Positions 16,532-62,016 are shown, counted from the whole stretch's first letter. The stretch is 63,902 bases of DNA, filler included, from an uncultured Methanosarcinales archaeon (GCA_964566535.1; 5 parts of 5 records of this genome joined end to end with filler, not necessarily neighbours in it), one strand, 5' to 3'. Notes: a model not told the origin generated them from the letters alone. Translations and numbers: made by a program.

Positions 16532-18054
16532 CTACAAATCATTCACAGTCAATACTTCTATTCTTGTTTCAGTTGGTTTTATCCTAAGATCCATTGCAAC
16601 CAAGTAATCAACACTTGCTTTTTCTGCAATCCTTACAAGATCCCTATCAATTACACCATCAAAAACAATAGCATAGACATTATTGCTCAAACTTTTCATA
16701 GTTGTTTGAAGTTCACTAATTGGAACTTTCCCAAGAATGTTAAGTTTATCATCCAAGATATGCGCTCCCCTTGTCCCAATAAGGTCTTCTAACATGCCCT
16801 TAAAAACTTTTATTTCATCAGGAGTCGCTTTATTCCTAGGTGGAGCTTGTGGTGAATGATGCTGTGATTGCGAAGGCCGAACAAAAGGTCTCTGTTGTGC
16901 AGGTGCTGATGGCCTTTGTGCACTAGGTGCAGGTCTCTGTTGTGCAGGTGCTGATGGCCTTTGTGCACTAGGTGCAGGTCTCTGTNNNNNNNNNNNNNNN
17001 NNNNNNNNNNNNNNNNNNNNNNNNNNNNNNNNNNNNNNNNNNNNNNNNNNNNNNNNNNNNNNNNNNNNNNNNNNNNNNNNNNNNNTCTCTGTTGTGCAGG
17101 TGCTGATGGCCTTTGTGCACTAGGTGCAGGTCTCTGTTGTTGTGCAGGAGCTGAATTAGGAATAGGCTTATAGCCAGGCCTCTTTTGAGGAACATCAAGC
17201 CTATCAGGATCCTTACCTAACTCAAGGTTAGCCTGCTCTCCAGAAATCCTACTTCTCAAAGCTTTATGGATTTCTTTCTTTGTAATCTCTTCCACTTCCT
17301 TTCCATCAGGAGCAAAACTCACATAGTCAATATCGGCAACCTCTGATAATCCCTTTATGATTAATTTTCCACCTCGATCTCCATCCACAAAAGCAGTAAT
17401 TACCTTCTGCTTACTCAATTCAATAATTGTCTCAGGAACCGATGTACCATTCATAGCTATTGCATTTTTGAAACCATGTTTTAGCAAAGTAATCACATCC
17501 GCTCTTCCTTCAACAATAATAATTTCATCACTATCATCTATCGAAGGACCTGCAGGTAATCTGTCCTTGCCGTACTCTTCAATTTCCATCACTCTAACAG
17601 AATATGCTACTTCATCAGCTAATTCTTGAGAATCAGGCATTGTAGAATCCATCATGTCCTTTAATAGTTCCTTTGCTCTCCCAATAACAAAGTTTCTTTT
17701 ACTTACCCTTACATCTTCAATGTTACTAACTGCAATCTTTGCTGTACAAGGACCTATCCTTTGGATTATCTCTAAAGCTGCAGCAATTATTGAAGTCTCA
17801 GCCTTATCTAAACTTGAAGGTATAAGGATGGTACCTTTGGTTTTCCCTGTTCTGGTCTCCGCATTAACTTCAATTCTACCTATTTTTCCACTTCTTTGTA
17901 ACTCTCTTAATTCTAAATCTGATCCTAACAGCCCTTCTGTCTGGCCAAAAATAGCGCCTATAACATCTGGTCTATCAACAACTCCATCAATTTCAATAGT
18001 TGCATGAACAATGTACTTTGATGATACTGGACTTATCTTTCCCATATTTTCCAA
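16532..18054 (-). CDS. dnaG: Archaeal DnaG (TOPRIM); one gene spanning the N gap
   Basis: GAIFGQTEGLLG, IVEGRADV, DGDRGG; after the gap the repeat frame runs ..NKATPDEIKVFKGMLEDLIG into ORF 16532..16795. Confidence 0.92.
16887..17140 (-). repeat. 45-bp tandem repeat encoding QQRPAPSAQRPSAPA in the DnaG linker
   Basis: Identical units on both sides of the 100-N gap 16986-17085. Confidence 0.9.
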
Positions 18055-20737: not shown

Positions 20738-20837
20738 NNNNNNNNNNNNNNNNNNNNNNNNNNNNNNNNNNNNNNNNNNNNTTAATTAATTAANNNNNNN
20801 NNNNNNNNNNNNNNNNNNNNNNNNNNNNNNNNNNNNN
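20738..20837. other. Artificial contig linker
   Basis: N-run, TTAATTAATTAA, N-run. Confidence 0.97.
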
Positions 20838-38998: not shown

Positions 38999-39018
38999 AA
39001 GTTAGGCTAACCTAACTT
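38999..39018. promoter_or_regulatory. DtxR/IdeR-type iron box
   Basis: AAGTTAGG-CTAA-CCTAACTT between the TATA box (38989) and the FTR1 start. Confidence 0.8.
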
Positions 39019-39022
39019 TTAG

Positions 39023-39859
39023 ATGATTTCAAGCTTTGTAATAACATTCAGAGAAACTCTAGAGGCGGCATTAATAATAGGAATAATTCTAGCTTATCTA
39101 GTTAAAACAAAACGTACAAAATACAACAATATCGTTTACTTAGGGATAACTTCTGCAATCATTGCATCCATAATCGCAGCATTCTTATTCAATTCATTAG
39201 CTGGCGGTTTTACTGGCAGAGCAGAAGAAATATTTGAAGGAATAGCAATGTTATTTGCAGCTTTCTTAATAACATTCATGATTCTATGGATGCTTAAACA
39301 AAAACATGTACAGGTAGAACTACATCAAAAAGTCCAAAAAGAAATAGACGAACAACATAAGGCAGGACTATTCTTCTTAGTTTTCATCTCAGTTTTCAGA
39401 GAAGGCATAGAAACTGTTATTTTCTTAAGTGCAGCAAATTTTGCAACATCGGCAACAAATGGTCTGATGGGGGCATTAATCGGAATCATAGCTGCAGTAA
39501 TCCTCGGTTACGCAATATTCGTATGGGGCAAAAACCTAAACTTAAAAAAATTCTTCAACGTAACAGGAGTCATTCTTATCTTATTCGCAGCAGGATTAGT
39601 AGTCCATGGAGTACACGAATTCCAGGAAGCAAAACTACTACCAACTTACATAGAACACGTTTGGGACATGAACCCTCCAGAAAACCCAGATGGATCATTC
39701 CCAGCCCTACACGAAAAAGGCTCAGTTGGATCAATTGCAAAAGGACTCTTAGGCTACAACGGAAACCCATCACTAATAGAAGTTTTCTCTTACTTAGCAT
39801 ATATTCTAGCAATAGTCCTACTTTGGAGAAACATAGATAAAGTTCATGAAGTTATTTAG
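39023..39859 (+). CDS. FTR1-family iron permease
   Basis: Two RExxE motifs (RETLE, REGIE). Confidence 0.93.
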   Translation: MISSFVITFRETLEAALIIGIILAYLVKTKRTKYNNIVYLGITSAIIASIIAAFLFNSLAGGFTGRAEEIFEGIAMLFAAFLITFMILWMLKQKHVQVELHQKVQKEIDEQHKAGLFFLVFISVFREGIETVIFLSAANFATSATNGLMGALIGIIAAVILGYAIFVWGKNLNLKKFFNVTGVILILFAAGLVVHGVHEFQEAKLLPTYIEHVWDMNPPENPDGSFPALHEKGSVGSIAKGLLGYNGNPSLIEVFSYLAYILAIVLLWRNIDKVHEVI

Positions 39860-39921
39860 ATTTCTCGTATTAAACTAAAAAACCACAACATTTATATACT
39901 AATACATGCCACTTATGACAT

Positions 39922-40224
39922 ATGTCAGAAAAAGCATATAAAGTATTCTTCACAACATTGGCAAATAACAATAGATTGAAGATTATAAACTATCTCAGAA
40001 AAGGAACTAAATGTGTTCATGAGATATGCAAAGATCTTAACTTTAATCAAACAACCGTCTCCCACAACCTAAAAAGACTCCTCCATTGTGGTTTTGTATT
40101 CGTAGAAAAACAAGGAAAACATCGTTATTACACCCTTAACAACAAAACCATCAAACCATTAATGTCATTAATAGACGAACACATACCTGAGTATTGCGAA
40201 AAATTAGAAAAAGGAGAAATATAA
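39922..40224 (+). CDS. ArsR/SmtB regulator
   Basis: LANNNRLKII..CVHEI..QTTVSHNL..GKHRYY. Confidence 0.92.
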   Translation: MSEKAYKVFFTTLANNNRLKIINYLRKGTKCVHEICKDLNFNQTTVSHNLKRLLHCGFVFVEKQGKHRYYTLNNKTIKPLMSLIDEHIPEYCEKLEKGEI

Positions 40225-40225
40225 A

Positions 40226-40384
40226 ATCGTAAAAACAATAACAAAAAACAATAGAACTTACTACATATGCGAAGCATGCGATTTTGCATATTTAGACAGA
40301 GAAACAGCACAAAAATGCGAAGATTACTACAATAAATACAAATCATGTTCATTAGAACTAACAAAAAAAGCAATTACCCTCTAA
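40226..40384 (+). CDS. Cys-rich microprotein with ATC start, or decayed gene
   Basis: IVKTITKNNRTYYICEACDFAYLDRETAQKCEDYYNKYKSCSLELTKKAITL; fills the gap between coupled genes. Confidence 0.55.
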   Translation: MVKTITKNNRTYYICEACDFAYLDRETAQKCEDYYNKYKSCSLELTKKAITL

Positions 40385-40386
40385 AA

Positions 40387-40779
40387 ATGGAATTAATAGA
40401 CAACAAAAACTGTTTTGTATGCGGAAAAGAAAACAAAATAGGATTAAAGCTAGACTACGAAATAGAAGATAGAAAGTTCAAAGCAGAGTTCATACCAAAA
40501 CCAGAACTACAAGGCTTCAAAGATATCGTACATGGCGGAATTGTAACAACTCTCTTAGATGAAGCAATGGTTAACCTTGCTTACAAACTAAAACTAAATG
40601 CCGTTACTAAAACAATTACTGTAAACTTAAAAAAACCAACTGTTGTTGGGCATAAATACAACCTATCAGGAGAAATTGTAGAGGAACAAGAAAAGATTAT
40701 AAAAGCAAAAGCAACATTAAAAGACCAAAACAATGAACTGGTTGCTGAAGCTGAATCAATCCTCGTTAAGCTAAAATGA
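40387..40779 (+). CDS. PaaI-family hotdog thioesterase
   Basis: CFVCG..HGGIVTTLLDEAM. Confidence 0.9.
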   Translation: MELIDNKNCFVCGKENKIGLKLDYEIEDRKFKAEFIPKPELQGFKDIVHGGIVTTLLDEAMVNLAYKLKLNAVTKTITVNLKKPTVVGHKYNLSGEIVEEQEKIIKAKATLKDQNNELVAEAESILVKLK

Positions 40780-41915
40780 AAAAACAAGATAAATTAGATC
40801 CAATCTGCGGAATGAAAGGCCACATAAAAGCGCATGGCTCTTATTTCTGTAGTCAAAACTGTATAAAAGAATATGAAAGACATAACAGGATGAAACATTG
40901 CATTAGCTGCGATATCAAAGGGGGCCATCGCCCTTGGTACAAAGAAAGACTTTACATCGTCAGCATTGCAACTGCCATAATAATATTAATCTCATACCTA
41001 ATCCCTTCCCTAAACCCACTATTCAACTCATTCATCGACTATTTCAAGTTAATCTGGTGGGCAATCCTAGCAGGATTACTAATCGGAGGAATTATTGACT
41101 ACTTTATCCCAAAAGAATACATCTCAAAATTCTTATCAACTCATAAAAAAAGAACAATCTTCTATGCAGTTGGATTTGGATTCTTAATGTCAGCTTGTTC
41201 CCACGGAATTTTAGCAATAGCAATAGAACTTTACAAAAAAGGAGCATCTATTCCTTCAGTAATAGCATTCTTATTAGCTTCACCTTGGGCTAATCTTCCA
41301 ATAACAATATTACTTTTCAGTTTCTTTGGAACAAAAGCATTATACCTTGTATTCTCAGCTGTAGTTATTGCAATCATAACTGGATTCATATACCAGTTTC
41401 TGTCAAAAAACAAAAAAATTGAAGACAACCCACACACAGTCAAGGTTGGAAAAGAATTTTCAATAAAAGAAGACATCAAAAAAAGATTCAAGAACCATAA
41501 ATTCTCATTAGAAGATGTGAAAGGAGTTGTTAAAGGTGGTTGGGCTTTGGCAAAGATGGTTGTTTGGTGGATCTTAATAGGTATGATCTTAGCAGCTTTC
41601 GCAAGAACATACGTCCCTCATGATTTCTTCATGAAATACATGGGACCAACTGCATTAGGTTTACTAATAACATTAGTTTTCGCAACAATAATAGAAGTAT
41701 GTTCTGAAGGTTCTTCAGTACTAGCATTTGAAATATTCAAACAAACGGGAGCTTTAGGTAACTCATTTACCTTCCTAATGGCTGGGGTGGCCACAGATAT
41801 GACGGAGATTGGATTGCTATGGAGTAATATAGGGCGTAAGACCGCAATTTGGTTACCTATAATCACTGTACCACAAATTGTAGTACTTGGATATCTTTTC
41901 AATTTACTACTCTAA
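40776..41915 (+). CDS. DUF318/ArsP-like permease with N-terminal YHS/TRASH-like motif
   Basis: DPICGM..YFCS..C; ACSHG, ASPWAN, EVCSEG. Confidence 0.88.
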   Translation: MKKQDKLDPICGMKGHIKAHGSYFCSQNCIKEYERHNRMKHCISCDIKGGHRPWYKERLYIVSIATAIIILISYLIPSLNPLFNSFIDYFKLIWWAILAGLLIGGIIDYFIPKEYISKFLSTHKKRTIFYAVGFGFLMSACSHGILAIAIELYKKGASIPSVIAFLLASPWANLPITILLFSFFGTKALYLVFSAVVIAIITGFIYQFLSKNKKIEDNPHTVKVGKEFSIKEDIKKRFKNHKFSLEDVKGVVKGGWALAKMVVWWILIGMILAAFARTYVPHDFFMKYMGPTALGLLITLVFATIIEVCSEGSSVLAFEIFKQTGALGNSFTFLMAGVATDMTEIGLLWSNIGRKTAIWLPIITVPQIVVLGYLFNLLL

Positions 41916-42869
41916 TCTTTTTTTAACTAATTTATAGGAATTGTGTGGATTTGCCCTTCTACATATATCTCTAAATTGCCCTTCTTTAAACCAAAAACCA
42001 GCTATGTTTCCATATTTGTTATTTGCTTTATCTAAAAGATTCAATATTATTGGAAAATTAAGTCCGTAGATTGTAATGTCGTCCTTTCCATTCTTAGGAT
42101 TAGAATGTTTAAATCCTAAATTATCTAATAATTTAATAAATCCCCTCCTAGTTTCTTCTTTCCACTGAGATACTGTAAATGTTGTTCCTTTAAAGTGCCC
42201 TTCATCAATTATGAACTGTGAAAATACTTGAAATTGAAATTCTTGAGGTAATTTACAAATAACCTCAAAAAACTTTATTGAATCTATTTCTTCTGGTTTT
42301 AATCTTAAAGATTTAGAGATTAAGTGAACTAAAACACTAGGAATAGTAACATATGATATTTTTTCATCTTTTATTCTTGAAAGATCAGTTTTATCTTTCA
42401 ACAATATTTGAATTAGATTATCCATAAAATAAACTCTATCGTGTTTTTGATACCAAGAACATTGACCTGTAAGACGATTATAACAACCATCTCCTTGTAT
42501 TGTTATTGCTCTGACATGCAATGGATTAACATTAAATGGGAATAAGATATTATACATATTCGCTTGTCTTCTTCCAAAAGATACCACTTCTTTTTCAAGG
42601 TCTTCTAAATTATAACTTAAAGTTCTAGCTATTTTAATCAGATGACTAACAGAATGGATAAATTTTTTACCTCTATATATTGAATCAATAGTTTCCCTAT
42701 CAAATTTAAGATCCCTACCTAATCTCCTAACGCCATACTCTTTAATTGACTTTTCAAGCTTATTTCTAACTTTGTCAGAAAGCTTTACAAAACCATCAAC
42801 TTCCCACAAATGGACGGTATTAGGTATATTTTCTAAGTTCTTACTTTTATTTTTTTGATTTGAGTTCAT
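41907..42869 (-). CDS. LAGLIDADG-like endonuclease with N-terminal HTH
   Basis: Two motif-like helices, AITIQGDG and SQFIIDEG; free-standing and antisense. Confidence 0.7.
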   Translation of the reverse strand: MNSNQKNKSKNLENIPNTVHLWEVDGFVKLSDKVRNKLEKSIKEYGVRRLGRDLKFDRETIDSIYRGKKFIHSVSHLIKIARTLSYNLEDLEKEVVSFGRRQANMYNILFPFNVNPLHVRAITIQGDGCYNRLTGQCSWYQKHDRVYFMDNLIQILLKDKTDLSRIKDEKISYVTIPSVLVHLISKSLRLKPEEIDSIKFFEVICKLPQEFQFQVFSQFIIDEGHFKGTTFTVSQWKEETRRGFIKLLDNLGFKHSNPKNGKDDITIYGLNFPIILNLLDKANNKYGNIAGFWFKEGQFRDICRRANPHNSYKLVKKRLE

Positions 42870-42977
42870 TTTAAATCACTAAGATGATATATTTTATTGG
42901 ATTTAAAATTGGATGAAAACATCAAAAAATAAAGAAGACGTAGTTTAAATACCTTCCGAGGGTCCATGTCCAGTGGG

Positions 42978-43076
42978 TTGTGGTCAAACATCGGAAGAAA
43001 AACAGCAATTTGGCTACCAATAATAACAGTACCTCAGATAGTAGTGTTAGGATATTTATTTAATATTTTACTTTAA
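42978..43076 (+). pseudogene. Displaced duplicate of the permease 3' end
   Basis: Encodes LWSNIGRKTAIWLPIITVPQIVVLGYLFNILL*, 31/32 aa identical to 41817-41915. Confidence 0.92.
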
Positions 43077-43121
43077 GAAATATTTCCCTGGGAACTGGTA
43101 TCACAGACTATGTATGAACAC

Positions 43122-44066
43122 TTATTGTCCTGAAACCTGGTTAATGTAGCCCACAATCATCTTTTCTATAGCATCCCTATGCACAAATATCACACCTGTT
43201 TGTTGCATTTCTTTGTATCCAAGAGGGTGCCCAGGAGTTTGGATTCTATCACCTCTAATACCTATCCCCTCATTAACAATCCCAGCAAATGTATATTTAT
43301 CCTCTCCAGCCCTTAAAAAAACAGGCTCACCACCTTCTCCATTATAACCTGGAACACTGGTAAAACAATGACTTTCTTCACTTCCCTCATAATTCCCAGA
43401 GAAGCCACTTAAAAAATCTTCATCATGTCTCAAAACATAACCTTGCTTCTCATATAAGGGAGACCCTGCAGGAACTACTAACTTACCCAACCTTTCAACC
43501 TCTTTAGTTTGATCAAAAAAATCCCTCCCACCAAACTCAAATTCATATCCTTCTTCAGAAGGTGTTCCAACCATCCTGATAAATGTTGAAACATCATCTC
43601 CAACATCTGGAACTTTAGGTCCTAAATGCATCCGTGCAACCCCTTCTGGATTTCTATTTCCATCATAATTTGTTCTAATAAGGGCAATATCAGCATCACT
43701 ATCTTCTGCAATAACCTCAAATGGCCTTCTCCCATCAAAAACATAACCTCTTCTTGATTGGTGAAGTACCCTTAAATCATCAACACCACCATCAATAACA
43801 TGGGAGTTTGTAAGAAATAGATTATCACCAAGATAAGTGGCTCTTCCACCAGTAATTGCTCTGTCATTATCATCAACTCTGGCAATATCATACAATGTTC
43901 CCTCAATCTCATTTTTATTCATATGAGGATCATCTGAGGGACTAAGAAAATCGTTTAATAGATCTACCTCTAACTCACTGGCTGATTTTCTATCGCAACC
44001 AACAGTAACTGCAGCAGCAGCAAATGTACCAGCCAATCTTAAAAACGTTCTTCTATCTATATCCAT
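43122..44066 (-). CDS. Tat-signal trypsin-like protein, probably inactive
   Basis: RRTFL, TVGC, LTNSHV, DIALI, NGEGGEPVF. Confidence 0.7.
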   Translation of the reverse strand: MDIDRRTFLRLAGTFAAAAVTVGCDRKSASELEVDLLNDFLSPSDDPHMNKNEIEGTLYDIARVDDNDRAITGGRATYLGDNLFLTNSHVIDGGVDDLRVLHQSRRGYVFDGRRPFEVIAEDSDADIALIRTNYDGNRNPEGVARMHLGPKVPDVGDDVSTFIRMVGTPSEEGYEFEFGGRDFFDQTKEVERLGKLVVPAGSPLYEKQGYVLRHDEDFLSGFSGNYEGSEESHCFTSVPGYNGEGGEPVFLRAGEDKYTFAGIVNEGIGIRGDRIQTPGHPLGYKEMQQTGVIFVHRDAIEKMIVGYINQVSGQ

Positions 44067-44139
44067 AAGAAATTATCAGAACTTCCCATATATAAAGCTT
44101 TCGCTTATTAACTACTATAGAATAGTAACAATACTCTCC

Positions 44140-44499
44140 TCACAACTCACAATCTTCACAATTAACCTTCTCACAAACCTTGTCCTTAAACTTCCATTTC
44201 AAAGCCCACTTCTTAATGTCCTGTATAATCTTAATAAAGTCATCTCCACTCTTAGTCAAAGAATACAAACACTTTACCGGAACCTCTGAAGCATCAACTC
44301 TTCGTTTAACTAAACCTTCCTTCTCAAGTTCCTTAAGCCTCATAGATAGTATCTTGGGAGTTATCTCTGGCAACCCCCTTTTGATCTCAGAATACCTCCT
44401 CTCCTTAGACTCCCCTTTAAATAACTCTAACAAAATGAGTAAAGTCCATCTTTTACCAATAAAATTGGTTGTTTTGTAGATTATACAGTCATTATACAT
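44140..44499 (-). CDS. HxlR/DUF24 regulator
   Basis: C..IGKRWTLLIL..ITPKILSMRLKELE..YSLT. Confidence 0.92.
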   Translation of the reverse strand: MYNDCIIYKTTNFIGKRWTLLILLELFKGESKERRYSEIKRGLPEITPKILSMRLKELEKEGLVKRRVDASEVPVKCLYSLTKSGDDFIKIIQDIKKWALKWKFKDKVCEKVNCEDCEL

Positions 44500-44573
44500 T
44501 TTAAAACCCCTAAATCACTTAGTATACTTTAAGAAACCACTACATATTTATATAACTATTGTTTTACTACCTA

Positions 44574-44588
44574 CTATCAAAAAGATAC
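44574..44588. promoter_or_regulatory. Candidate HxlR-family operator
   Basis: CTATC-AAAAA-GATAC in the divergent intergenic region. Confidence 0.45.
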
Positions 44589-44602
44589 TAAGGTAGGATA
44601 AG

Positions 44603-45442
44603 ATGGTAAAAAGAAAAATAGTTGAAATTGATGAAGAAAAGTGCAACGGTTGCGGCTTATGCATACCTAACTGCCATGAGGGAGCATTACTAATCATAGA
44701 TAATAAAGCTAGATTAATATCCGACCTCTTCTGCGACGGCTTAGGAAACTGCTTAGGACATTGTCCGAAAGACGCAATAACAATTGTAGAAAGGGAAGCA
44801 GAACCCTACGACGAAAAGAAAGTTATGGCAAAAATATCAAAACAAGGTACTAACACTGTAATAGCCCACCTAAAACACCTAAAAGATCATAATGAAACAG
44901 AGTTCCTAAATCAAGCTATAGAATATTTAAAAGAAAACAATTTGGAAATACCAAATTTGGAGGAAAATGAAATGAACCAACCAACAGGCGGATGTCCAGG
45001 ATCAAAGACGATGGACTTCTCAGATAAAGAACAAAAAGAAGAAACAGGGGAGAGATCCTCACAACTTAGACAATGGCCAATTCAATTACATTTAGTCGGA
45101 CCAATGGCACCCTATTTTCAAGAGAAAGATGTAGTCATAGCAGCAGACTGTGTTGCTTATGCATTAGCAGATTTCCATAAGAACCATCTTAAAGGAAAAT
45201 CATTAGCAATTGCATGCCCTAAACTAGATTCCGACCAAGAAACATACATTGAAAAAATAACAGCATTAATCGATGAAGCAAAAATCAACACTTTAACAGT
45301 AATGATAATGGAAGTGCCATGTTGTGGTGGATTACTGCATGTAGCAAAACAAGCGGCAGAAAAAGCAAAAAGAAAAATTCCAATAAAATCAGTTGTAGTT
45401 GGCATCCAAGGAGACGTCCTAAGTGAGGAGTGGGAAAAATGA
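44603..45442 (+). CDS. 4Fe-4S ferredoxin-domain protein
   Basis: CNGCGLCIPNC, CDGLGNCLGHCP, QWPIQL, CPKLD, MEVPCC. Confidence 0.9.
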   Translation: MVKRKIVEIDEEKCNGCGLCIPNCHEGALLIIDNKARLISDLFCDGLGNCLGHCPKDAITIVEREAEPYDEKKVMAKISKQGTNTVIAHLKHLKDHNETEFLNQAIEYLKENNLEIPNLEENEMNQPTGGCPGSKTMDFSDKEQKEETGERSSQLRQWPIQLHLVGPMAPYFQEKDVVIAADCVAYALADFHKNHLKGKSLAIACPKLDSDQETYIEKITALIDEAKINTLTVMIMEVPCCGGLLHVAKQAAEKAKRKIPIKSVVVGIQGDVLSEEWEK

Positions 45443-45750
45443 ACGAAGGATTTTCAAAAGAGTTAGACGAACTGATGGAATTCCCCAAAGAGGGGGTTTT
45501 CTCTACAGTATTAGCTAAATCAGACACTTATAACTACACTTTAATGTGCTTATCAGCAGGAACAGACATAGACACACACACTTCAACAAAAAACGGAGTA
45601 GTCCAAGTTCTAAAGGGAAAAGGAACTTTCAGATTATTCGATAAAGACATAGAAATGAAACCAAACACATTCATCTTTATGCCAAAAGACGCTCCGCATT
45701 CACTAAAGGCAGAAGAAGACTTAGCTATATTGTTATGCTTAACTACTTAA
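45430..45750 (+). CDS. Cupin-domain protein
   Basis: IDTHTS..VLKGKG..APHSL. Confidence 0.85.
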   Translation: MGKMNEGFSKELDELMEFPKEGVFSTVLAKSDTYNYTLMCLSAGTDIDTHTSTKNGVVQVLKGKGTFRLFDKDIEMKPNTFIFMPKDAPHSLKAEEDLAILLCLTT

Positions 45751-46309
45751 TGCAGTCCTTACAATGCTGTTCGCAATCTATTTGCTCTTGATTCTCGTAA
45801 TTAATGTTAAGTGGCAATACGAAATCCTTAGCAGTAGAAATAACTATATTCATCTGAATATCCTTAACCTTCTCATTCCCTCTCAGATGATGGTTAACAA
45901 TACCTTCTAATCTCTTTAAATCTGTAGCCATAAAAAACAAACAAAGATTGTGCTTCCCAGATGTAATCAAAGCATTAACAAAAAAAGGACAATCCTTAAA
46001 TTCATTGATTATTGCAGCAGTATCAGTAGCACTAATGTCTACTTTAGCTAGACTCAAATCAACAACTCTAAAATTAACCCCATTAACGTTATACAAAATA
46101 CCTTTCTGTTGCAATTTCTTTATCCTTGCACCTACAGAAGGCTGACTTAACTTAATTTTCTTAGCAATTTCTTCCTGAGAAATATTCGGGTCTCTTTGAA
46201 TCAACGAAAGAACTACATTGTCTCGATCATCAAGCCCTAACTTTTCATTAAGCTCAATCTTTTTTTTAAACTCTTCAATTTTTACAAAATTTTTAACTTT
46301 TTCTGCCAT
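45743..46309 (-). CDS. Lrp/AsnC regulator
   Basis: LDDRD..SQEEIA..LSQPSVGARIKKL; C-terminal CxxxCxxC. Confidence 0.88.
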   Translation of the reverse strand: MAEKVKNFVKIEEFKKKIELNEKLGLDDRDNVVLSLIQRDPNISQEEIAKKIKLSQPSVGARIKKLQQKGILYNVNGVNFRVVDLSLAKVDISATDTAAIINEFKDCPFFVNALITSGKHNLCLFFMATDLKRLEGIVNHHLRGNEKVKDIQMNIVISTAKDFVLPLNINYENQEQIDCEQHCKDCIK

Positions 46310-52587: not shown

Positions 52588-52687
52588 NNNNNNNNNNNNN
52601 NNNNNNNNNNNNNNNNNNNNNNNNNNNNNNNTTAATTAATTAANNNNNNNNNNNNNNNNNNNNNNNNNNNNNNNNNNNNNNNNNNNN
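52588..52687. other. Artificial contig linker
   Basis: N-run, TTAATTAATTAA, N-run. Confidence 0.97.
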
Positions 52688-55957: not shown

Positions 55958-56057
55958 NNNNNNNNNNNNNNNNNNNNNNNNNNNNNNNNNNNNNNNNNNN
56001 NTTAATTAATTAANNNNNNNNNNNNNNNNNNNNNNNNNNNNNNNNNNNNNNNNNNNN
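55958..56057. other. Artificial contig linker
   Basis: N-run, TTAATTAATTAA, N-run. Confidence 0.97.
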
Positions 56058-61916: not shown

Positions 61917-62016
61917 NNNNNNNNNNNNNNNNNNNNNNNNNNNNNNNNNNNNNNNNNNNNTTAATTAATTAANNNNNNNNNNNNNNNNNNNNNNNNNNNN
62001 NNNNNNNNNNNNNNNN
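61917..62016. other. Artificial contig linker
   Basis: N-run, TTAATTAATTAA, N-run. Confidence 0.97.

Follow-up and report, generated by a model that had tools for sequence, protein, structure and literature searches.

The 63,902-nucleotide stretch of DNA analyzed here (the window), from the genome of an uncultured Methanosarcinales archaeon (GCA_964566535.1), carries a gene for an ArsP_1 permease whose last 32 codons occur twice, on either side of a free-standing endonuclease gene that runs antisense to it. With a probability of roughly 0.77, we interpret this arrangement as a homing element that works without splicing and would consist of a resistant permease 3' end, an antisense nuclease with helix-turn-helix (HTH) and LAGLIDADG domains, and a promoter of its own. 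Phages, fungal mitochondria and one family of yeasts are known to harbour elements that home without intron or intein; the window would add a case in which gene tails are replaced on archaeal chromosomes, again without splicing, at an address common to three lineages, with a target that can be predicted and a promoter of the repair type. The host, a small marine archaeon, is taken to be of the Woesearchaeota type because of the names that its close permease homologues bear. The window is made of pieces of five contigs with N spacers (16986-17085, 20738-20837, 52588-52687, 55958-56057 and 61917-62016), and neighbours across these joints are not real.

The end of the permease gene is present twice

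The host gene (40776-41915, plus strand) encodes a predicted permease of 379 amino acids, composed of a native 5' part and a 3' end that we assign to the element. Its description as a metal permease in the first-pass annotation of this DNA holds at the level of the Pfam family (ArsP_1, PF03773, E 8e-38); NCBIfam matches stay below the cut-off, and a metal is a presumed substrate. The last 32 codons are found at 41817-41912 (the in-use copy, 41817-41915 with its stop) and again at 42978-43073 (the orphan, an open frame of 42978-43076 with its stop), both on the plus strand and with TAA in register after each. In a search for direct repeats within 39000-46000 the two copies formed the top family (90 nt, 73%). 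Codon by codon, 10 positions are identical, 21 differ synonymously and one differs in its residue (Leu/Ile), which reproduces the annotated counts of 31/32 identical amino acids and 22 differing codons; overall identity is 70% for nucleotides and 97% for protein. Distributed randomly over the last 30 codons, their 27 nucleotide differences caused a mean of 16.5 residue changes, and one or none in 0/20,000 trials. Since the first two orphan codons, TTG TGG (42978-42983), also form the end of a promoter cassette common to other promoters (see below), only the part from 42984 onward, with 30 codons and 29 identical residues, can be assigned to the orphan with certainty.

The duplication lies within one contig, and two other assembled contigs, which may share a data source, are identical over 6-7 kb. 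Contigs of four studies cross the left junction (40700-42059, 41737-42036) and the right junction (42955-43281, 42955-43400) with 0 differences. A joint that skips the element was not seen in these contigs, which cover 4 of the 22 listed runs and from which rare variants are dropped.

The orphan is the native end and the in-use tail the newcomer

Third codon positions of the gene body are A.48, C.24, G.04 and T.24, whereas 5/11 are G in codons 336-347 (41781-41816), just upstream of the duplicated part. In the first 12 codons of the tail, the orphan keeps the style of the gene body (A.6, C.2) and the in-use copy does not (G.2, T.4). Scored against the usage of the gene body, 12-codon segments at 41784-41855 drop to log-likelihoods of -7.6 and -4.9, and those elsewhere range from -1.6 to +7.2; the orphan has a value of -32.1 and the in-use copy one of -43.9. 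The best change points of codon usage lie at 41763-41784, in agreement with the break that had been placed near 41783. Judged by its codons, the foreign stretch is thus at least 11 codons longer upstream than the duplicated part, and we place the replacement 3' end at 41784-41915 (plus strand) with an uncertain left border, 41763-41784.

Permease alleles of relatives point the same way. Among alleles without the nuclease (empty alleles), 25/29 are closer to the orphan than to the in-use tail, and synonymous matches to 11 clade-mates amount to 124/250 for the orphan and 71/248 for the in-use copy, with the orphan higher in 10/11. Because codon usage, empty alleles and clade-mates all favour the orphan, the upstream tail is the newcomer and the orphan the native end, as the first-pass annotation had proposed.

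Both tails share lineage-specific residues with P0098, a relative with 91% identity, and the donor is therefore probably close kin. The 90% cluster of the permease comprises three members, which are the window protein, a version of this protein with a shorter start, and one relative at 91%. The further idea that the 32 codons had been recoded as protection against recutting was not supported. Independent draws would leave 10.8-12.4 of 29 degenerate codons identical between the tails, and 8 are so (P 0.19 and 0.06); codon identity is equally low in 3/12 natural allele pairs with 28/30 identical residues, although in 0/11 pairs with 29/30. Synonymous identity is also even along the tail (2/9, 3/10 and 3/9 degenerate codons identical). 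The divergence of the tails fits ordinary saturation, on these comparisons, and would need no directed recoding. As the orphan is intact while its silent sites are saturated, both tails must have been parts of working genes until recently.

The antisense gene encodes a double-motif LAGLIDADG protein

The endonuclease open reading frame (ORF; 41907-42869, minus strand, 320 amino acids) overlaps the permease stop by 9 nt. Residues of about 29-97 (42579-42785, minus strand) form an HTH domain of the XRE type (XRE-family matches with Z 6-7; HTH_26, E 0.006), and two LAGLIDADG domains follow. Motif 1, RAITIQGDG with Asp127, lies at 42486-42512 and motif 2, FSQFIIDEG with Asp222 and Glu223, at 42198-42224, both on the minus strand. 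G126, D127, Q141 and D222 are invariant in an alignment of 58 rows and E223 is nearly so (at least 90%). An AlphaFold2 model built from 18 close homologues has a mean predicted local distance difference score (pLDDT) of 88.3. All Foldseek matches listed for it are LAGLIDADG enzymes, and the wide structure search with VIA-align placed the intein endonuclease PI-PfuI first (Z 12.7, root-mean-square deviation 3.2, 180 aligned), with E-DreI, I-DmoI, TliVMA and WhiA within 1 Z unit. PI-PfuI uses Asp149 and Glu250. According to the model, the protein is a monomeric double-motif LAGLIDADG fold, with two alpha-beta-beta-alpha-beta-beta-alpha domains and both acidic residues at the motif ends, which bears out the identity claimed for the ORF. 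It resembles PI-PfuI (from an intein) and I-DmoI and I-Tsp061I (from introns) in its two-domain fold (Z 12.7, 12.3 and 11.2) and in Asp/Glu at the motif positions, and differs from them in the lack of a splicing element, in sequence (10-15% identity) and in the added HTH.

Matches at the sequence level are faint: phmmer against the PDB gave 0 matches at E 10, the family profile matches I-Tsp061I at E 0.0013, and LAGLIDADG_3 is found at E up to 0.1 in 14/58 family members. Most close relatives carry a C-terminal winged helix of about 60 amino acids that the window protein lacks. P0002, P0005 and P0012 stop where the window protein does, so the short form need not reflect decay. P0002, the closest relative of the nuclease, and P0116, a permease with a Met-type site (see below), each come from a 4890-nt contig of one and the same source and are probably one locus.

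The claim that the gene is free-standing was supported, with an intein absent and an intron probably so. It is a separate ORF on the opposite strand, by which an intein-encoded endonuclease is ruled out, and no intron signature was found at the element: there is no Rfam match, and the junctions do not pair above shuffled sequences.

The same address is used in several archaeal lineages

With the nuclease alignment alone as query, 21 loci were found, two of which are the window sequence and one of which lies on a contig that ends 41 nt past the gene. In all of the remaining 18 (16 distinct), the nuclease is antisense and tail-to-tail against the stop of the same permease; the records are labelled Aenigmatarchaeota or Thermoplasmatota or are metagenome contigs. 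The permease gene itself is present in 37/401 genomes of the window's order, 61/118 of a Thermoplasmatota order and 12/201 of an Aenigmatarchaeota class, from which 31, 30 and 11 permease loci, respectively, were examined. After exclusion of two duplicates, 69 of these loci have no nuclease gene, and at a further one (L159) it is broken. Empty status is less sure for 4/69 with less than 250 nt of downstream DNA, and 2/69 come from unpublished genomes (G132 and G207), on which no claim rests. Empty alleles in relatives, which the first-pass annotation had named as a check, thus exist in number and are interspersed with filled ones.

A permease-body tree from sequences that end ahead of the predicted site (82 rows, a quick method, four short filled rows omitted) requires 13 changes for its 14 filled rows, compared with a mean of 13.2 for shuffled labels; at least 10 are forced by well-supported branches. 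The body of the window permease falls within a group of 11 empty alleles from the window's order (97 in the Shimodaira-Hasegawa-like approximate likelihood-ratio test, SH-aLRT), and a single filled clade is rejected (approximately unbiased test, p-AU 0.0027; 40-row subset with 14 filled and 26 chosen empty rows). The nuclease tree leaves the window protein at an open fork and gives no direction of transfer. Between filled alleles and their nearest empty ones, amino-acid identity drops from 0.846 in the body to 0.719 in the last 49 codons (n=14), whereas matched empty-empty pairs (15 of 51 pairs) rise from 0.846 to 0.901; at synonymous sites, filled-empty pairs have 0.40 in the tail and 0.47 in the body. 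In an example without orphan, permease, nuclease and an acyl-CoA dehydrogenase gene follow each other at L068, and permease and acyl-CoA dehydrogenase directly at L140. Broken nuclease copies occur at L068, L076 and L159, and L135 is an empty allele with a fully filled-type site. Taking these alleles together, the element is mobile, with filled alleles scattered among empty ones between species, and one element seems to spread between three archaeal lineages without intron or intein.

Filled and empty alleles differ at a conserved permease motif

In a column-by-column comparison, the motif GVATDYTE was present in 55/69 empty and 0/17 nuclease-linked alleles. Its Tyr is found in 60/69 empty and 2/17 filled alleles, and those two carry other changes. 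The strongest differences concern M, A, A and Y of MAGVATDYTE, and the separating columns (M-A-G-V-A-T-D-Y) lie 6-13 codons upstream of the orphan start. Sister pairs of filled and empty alleles repeat the switch at the site. The nearest relative, P0098 (91%), has Tyr where the window has Met (codon 41799-41801), and the window site is surrounded by G-ending codons. We therefore predict the target region at 41784-41807 (plus strand), with GVATDMTE as the resistant form. The target had been sought around IGLLWS, at the insertion junction; it probably lies upstream of it, and protection would involve the exchange of Tyr for Met at 41799. The 9 Tyr-less empty alleles and L135 may be resistant alleles that remained after loss of the nuclease or partial conversion.

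The nuclease gene carries a promoter cassette shared with radA

Upstream of the nuclease gene and on its strand, the box CACTGGAC (42968-42975) stands at a fixed distance from a TATA-like TTTAAA (42944-42949), together forming a cassette (42944-42983, minus strand) that is shared with radA and 15 other promoters of the genome. Ten of the 17 places with this pattern precede LAGLIDADG-type genes; the other seven precede the radA operon, genes for a Cas4-like nuclease, an RNase H-like protein and an integrase, two genes of the Bro-N kind and one unassigned gene. A Hef-like helicase gene is also among those marked by the box. The box occurs in 37/41 related genomes compared with 1/41 for a scrambled word, and RadA was encoded by 7 of 26 ORFs scanned downstream of it in other genomes (30 loci were returned, L173-L202, of which one was the window's own and three were not scanned). 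Such a gene set looks like a repair regulon, as far as the neighbours of the box tell. The literature searched held no description of this promoter word, with most subscription papers outside its scope.

Near the start of 29 more distant family members, CACTGGAC was found exactly in 14/29 and with one mismatch allowed in 20/29; it was found in 0/19 close homologues from other loci, and the window copy has therefore presumably taken over a promoter of the host type. On the plus strand, the cassette consensus ends in TTGTGG, and other contigs share 42944-42983/4; that TTGTGG is common to the promoter and to the orphan start suggests a join by micro-homology. At L071, L073, L080, L081 and L083, the nuclease promoters share, by eye, an inverted word of another kind (TAAGG or TAGGA ... 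CTCCTTA), with a word resembling TTGAAAGTA close by, which could perhaps be that lineage's own repair box.

Discussion

The observations can be joined in one scheme. The nuclease would cut permease alleles without the element at or near the GVATDYTE codons, and the break would be repaired off an element-bearing allele. With the left end pairing in the permease body, the recipient would acquire the nuclease gene along with the resistant tail; on the right, the broken end would pair in conserved downstream DNA, as at the Thermoplasmatota and Aenigmatarchaeota loci without orphan, or in the orphan, which is likely to serve as the right homology arm. In the window lineage, the right end would first have been joined at a short match, TTGTGG(T), between the promoter cassette and the host tail, stranding the native tail, and every later round of homing would turn the recipient's own tail into a fresh orphan. 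The two tails would have diverged as working genes in separate lineages and have been joined recently, and the radA-type promoter would time cutting to periods of active recombination. Cleavage, cut position, donor and induction are the parts of this model that we infer from sequence comparison.

Several findings weigh against this reading. A credible orphan tail was found in 0/18 other permease loci (best p 0.05). The donor of the in-use tail was not among the permease alleles compared, only 7/16 filled alleles are closer to the in-use tail than to the orphan, and no empty allele of the window's own species was seen in the contigs or permease relatives searched. Among the 14 filled alleles, the window permease is the sole exception whose tail is host-like in protein (0.84 in the tail, 0.82 in the body). 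The synonymous identity of all filled-filled pairs is 0.47 in the tail and 0.48 in the body, hence their tails are no more alike. Association with the site is imperfect, as 9/69 empty alleles are without Tyr and 2/17 filled alleles retain it, and P values are overstated since related genomes are not independent. The endonuclease protein itself gave no LAGLIDADG match in Pfam and no name in NCBIfam, and without the C-terminal winged helix the window copy could be weakened.

The alternatives concern either the target or the nature of the insert. That the same element targets the insertion junction (IGLLW/SNIG), with immunity by synonymous recoding there, appears unlikely. The orphan begins at that point, the copies agree at only 2 of the first 9 degenerate codons counted from 42984, the unusual codons reach 41855, and the fragments left by the WHO elements of yeasts begin close to the cut (PMC7282813); however, filled and empty alleles do not differ strongly in columns +2 to +12 after the Asp but do so at -6, -5, -2 and +1, and the synonymous divergence is even along the tail and does not exceed saturation. 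A domesticated, WhiA-like DNA-binding protein of HTH-LAGLIDADG type, or a passive hitch-hiker, forming a two-gene unit with the permease, would account for the HTH domain, the constant linkage to one gene and the rank of WhiA among the fold matches (Z 11.9). We consider it quite improbable, given filled alleles that are scattered over the permease tree, conserved acidic residues next to frequent broken copies, allele-linked changes inside the permease and a promoter of the repair type rather than of a permease operon; WhiA/DUF199 as a domesticated regulator was rejected because catalytic residues are kept and inheritance is not vertical.

Duplication of the tail in place, followed by recoding of one copy by selection within the chromosome, is highly improbable, even if the tails differ at just 1/30 residues and from the 91% relative P0098 at 2 and 3/30: in an untranslated orphan, stops and residue changes would have accumulated well ahead of 20-21 synonymous differences, and purifying selection would be needed on both copies until recently. 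It is scarcely credible that the insert is an intron which joins the gene body to the downstream tail by splicing. The orphan frame is intact and group I introns are reported from Woesearchaeota (PMC6125680), but Rfam gave nothing for 40000-45000 at E up to 1, pairing between the junction flanks does not exceed that of shuffled sequences (fractions 0.36 and 0.18) and the upstream copy already completes the permease gene. An assembly chimera of two strains or species, which the origin of the window in a multi-contig metagenome bin might suggest and which the first-pass annotation had listed as a way to be wrong, is practically negligible, as the region lies inside one contig with two long identical counterparts and its junctions are bridged by contigs from four studies.

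The closest parallels to the preferred reading, a splicing-free homing element, are the WHO elements of Torulaspora and Lachancea yeasts, for which it has been proposed that a sensitive allele is cut and a resistant 3' end is copied in together with the nuclease gene (Coughlan et al., 2020; PMC7282813). There, too, a stand-alone, intein-related LAGLIDADG gene sits beside a chromosomal housekeeping gene, the resistant 3' end replaces that of the host, the old gene end is kept as a fragment that forms a homology arm, fragments and nuclease genes decay, and the family moves to new hosts. The WHO elements differ in their meiotic yeast hosts, as opposed to an archaeal chromosome, and in a protein-splicing domain and zinc finger in place of the XRE-HTH (and winged helix in relatives); the window element is antisense and tail-to-tail, forms no tandem cluster, uses one address in three archaeal lineages and would tie resistance to amino-acid changes in a conserved motif. 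Cleavage is demonstrated for WHO6 and is predicted for the window element. Membership in the WHO family proper was rejected: its intein-like splicing domain, zinc finger and FBA1 target are not found here (HTH and LAGLIDADG only, ArsP_1 host).

A likeness to fungal mitochondrial elements had been claimed, and the three-part layout is indeed the same. In the gene hybrids made by mobile ORFs (Allomyces atp6; Glomus atp6, atp9, cox2 and nad3; PMC3630166), a foreign C-terminus, a LAGLIDADG ORF and a stranded native C-terminus follow each other, and the Glomus atp6 copies have 63.5% nucleotide and 91% protein identity, compared with 70% and 97% here. These ORFs are organellar, share a transcript with their host gene and in some cases its reading frame, in contrast to the antisense ORF with its own promoter. 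The phage T4 endonucleases SegF, SegG and MobE, which are free-standing, home without introns (PMC2988022, PMC13565253) and recall the loci without orphan, with a gene between conserved genes and a neighbour in the empty allele that is cut at a distance and co-converted; they are GIY-YIG and HNH enzymes acting in phage co-infection and not LAGLIDADG enzymes on cellular chromosomes. In archaea, a free-standing LAGLIDADG_2 gene of Haloferax glycosylation islands has been proposed to start gene conversion (PMC5867893); its flanks have no protein-coding similarity, and the accessible text describes no target gene, duplicated end or empty/filled analysis. An archaeal description of the tail-replacing LAGLIDADG layout was not found in the literature searched (again with most subscription papers outside its scope).

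The address shared between Woesearchaeota-type, Aenigmatarchaeota and Thermoplasmatota hosts implies that uncultured small archaea exchange DNA at the level of alleles and carry out homologous repair, and that there is traffic between DPANN cells and other archaea. Chimeric gene ends have to be considered when phylogenies are derived from the genes concerned. A target is predicted by the comparison of empty and filled alleles, which makes a new LAGLIDADG enzyme directly assayable, and the promoter box shared with radA is a testable link between selfish nucleases and the repair programme.

Related elements at other genes

The family profile matches 76/401 genomes of the order, an upper bound since weak matches include HTH-only proteins and endonucleases inside long frames. 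Stranded gene ends were seen in the window's genome (G000) at further loci. At L032:381-2609 (G000:C10:16287-18515), a related nuclease of 422 amino acids lies antisense behind Nth (endonuclease III) and is followed by an orphan of the last 33 codons; the two Nth tails share 18/33 residues, and the orphan resembles the gene body in its G/T-ending codons. The codon style of Nth shifts far upstream (at about L032:741-800), and the replacement may have extended over much of the gene. At L171 (G000:C2:114100-117000), an NreA-like gene is followed by the promoter cassette, a 381-amino-acid nuclease on the same strand and a 21-codon orphan tail; NreA-like genes also adjoin family members in L042, L049 and L051, there antisense. 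At L162 (G000:C1:202500-206500), TYW1 stands between two LAGLIDADG genes with the same promoter cassette, of which the downstream one, on the same strand, runs into an orphan TYW1 tail. In the Aenigmatarchaeota genome G402, antisense family members are accompanied by stranded tails of YjbQ and of the tetraether lipid synthase Tes (L117:1068-2850 and L119:2-2030).

Recurrent neighbours among the 29 best family loci are a YchF-related GTPase (9), UDP-glucose dehydrogenase-like (3) and NreA-like (3) genes, carA (3), a tRNA splicing endonuclease (2) and HtpX (2). These more distant loci (L034-L062; L034 is from the unpublished genome G315) held no credible orphan tail: L058 (p 0.003), L054 (p 0.013) and L046 (p 0.02) were judged to be chance, having no terminal register or identity.

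We consider the odds about even that small-genome archaea harbour a large family of splicing-free homing elements derived from intein endonucleases. Each would have its target in a conserved motif close to one end of some housekeeping gene, such as those for the permease, Nth, NreA, TYW1, a YchF-like GTPase or the tRNA splicing endonuclease, and would carry resistant ends between phyla, force residue changes in otherwise invariant motifs and use the host radA promoter circuit to cut when recombination is on.

Some loci show further arrangements. At L036, L038, L039, L041, L044-L046, L048 and L050, members lie directly upstream of the YchF-related GTPase gene, on the same strand and without orphan, and may replace the 5' end of that gene. 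A broken member at L172 (G000:C4:26300-28300) is convergent with a tRNA splicing endonuclease gene, and intact ones lie beside the same gene at L052 and L053. At L055, L057 and L062, members are found in or beside the carA-carB operon, and the L055 frame appears to continue into the start of the large subunit. Within the window, a gene for a trypsin-like peptidase with a Tat/lipoprotein-type leader (43122-44066, minus strand), more G/C-rich than its neighbours, converges on the orphan stop.

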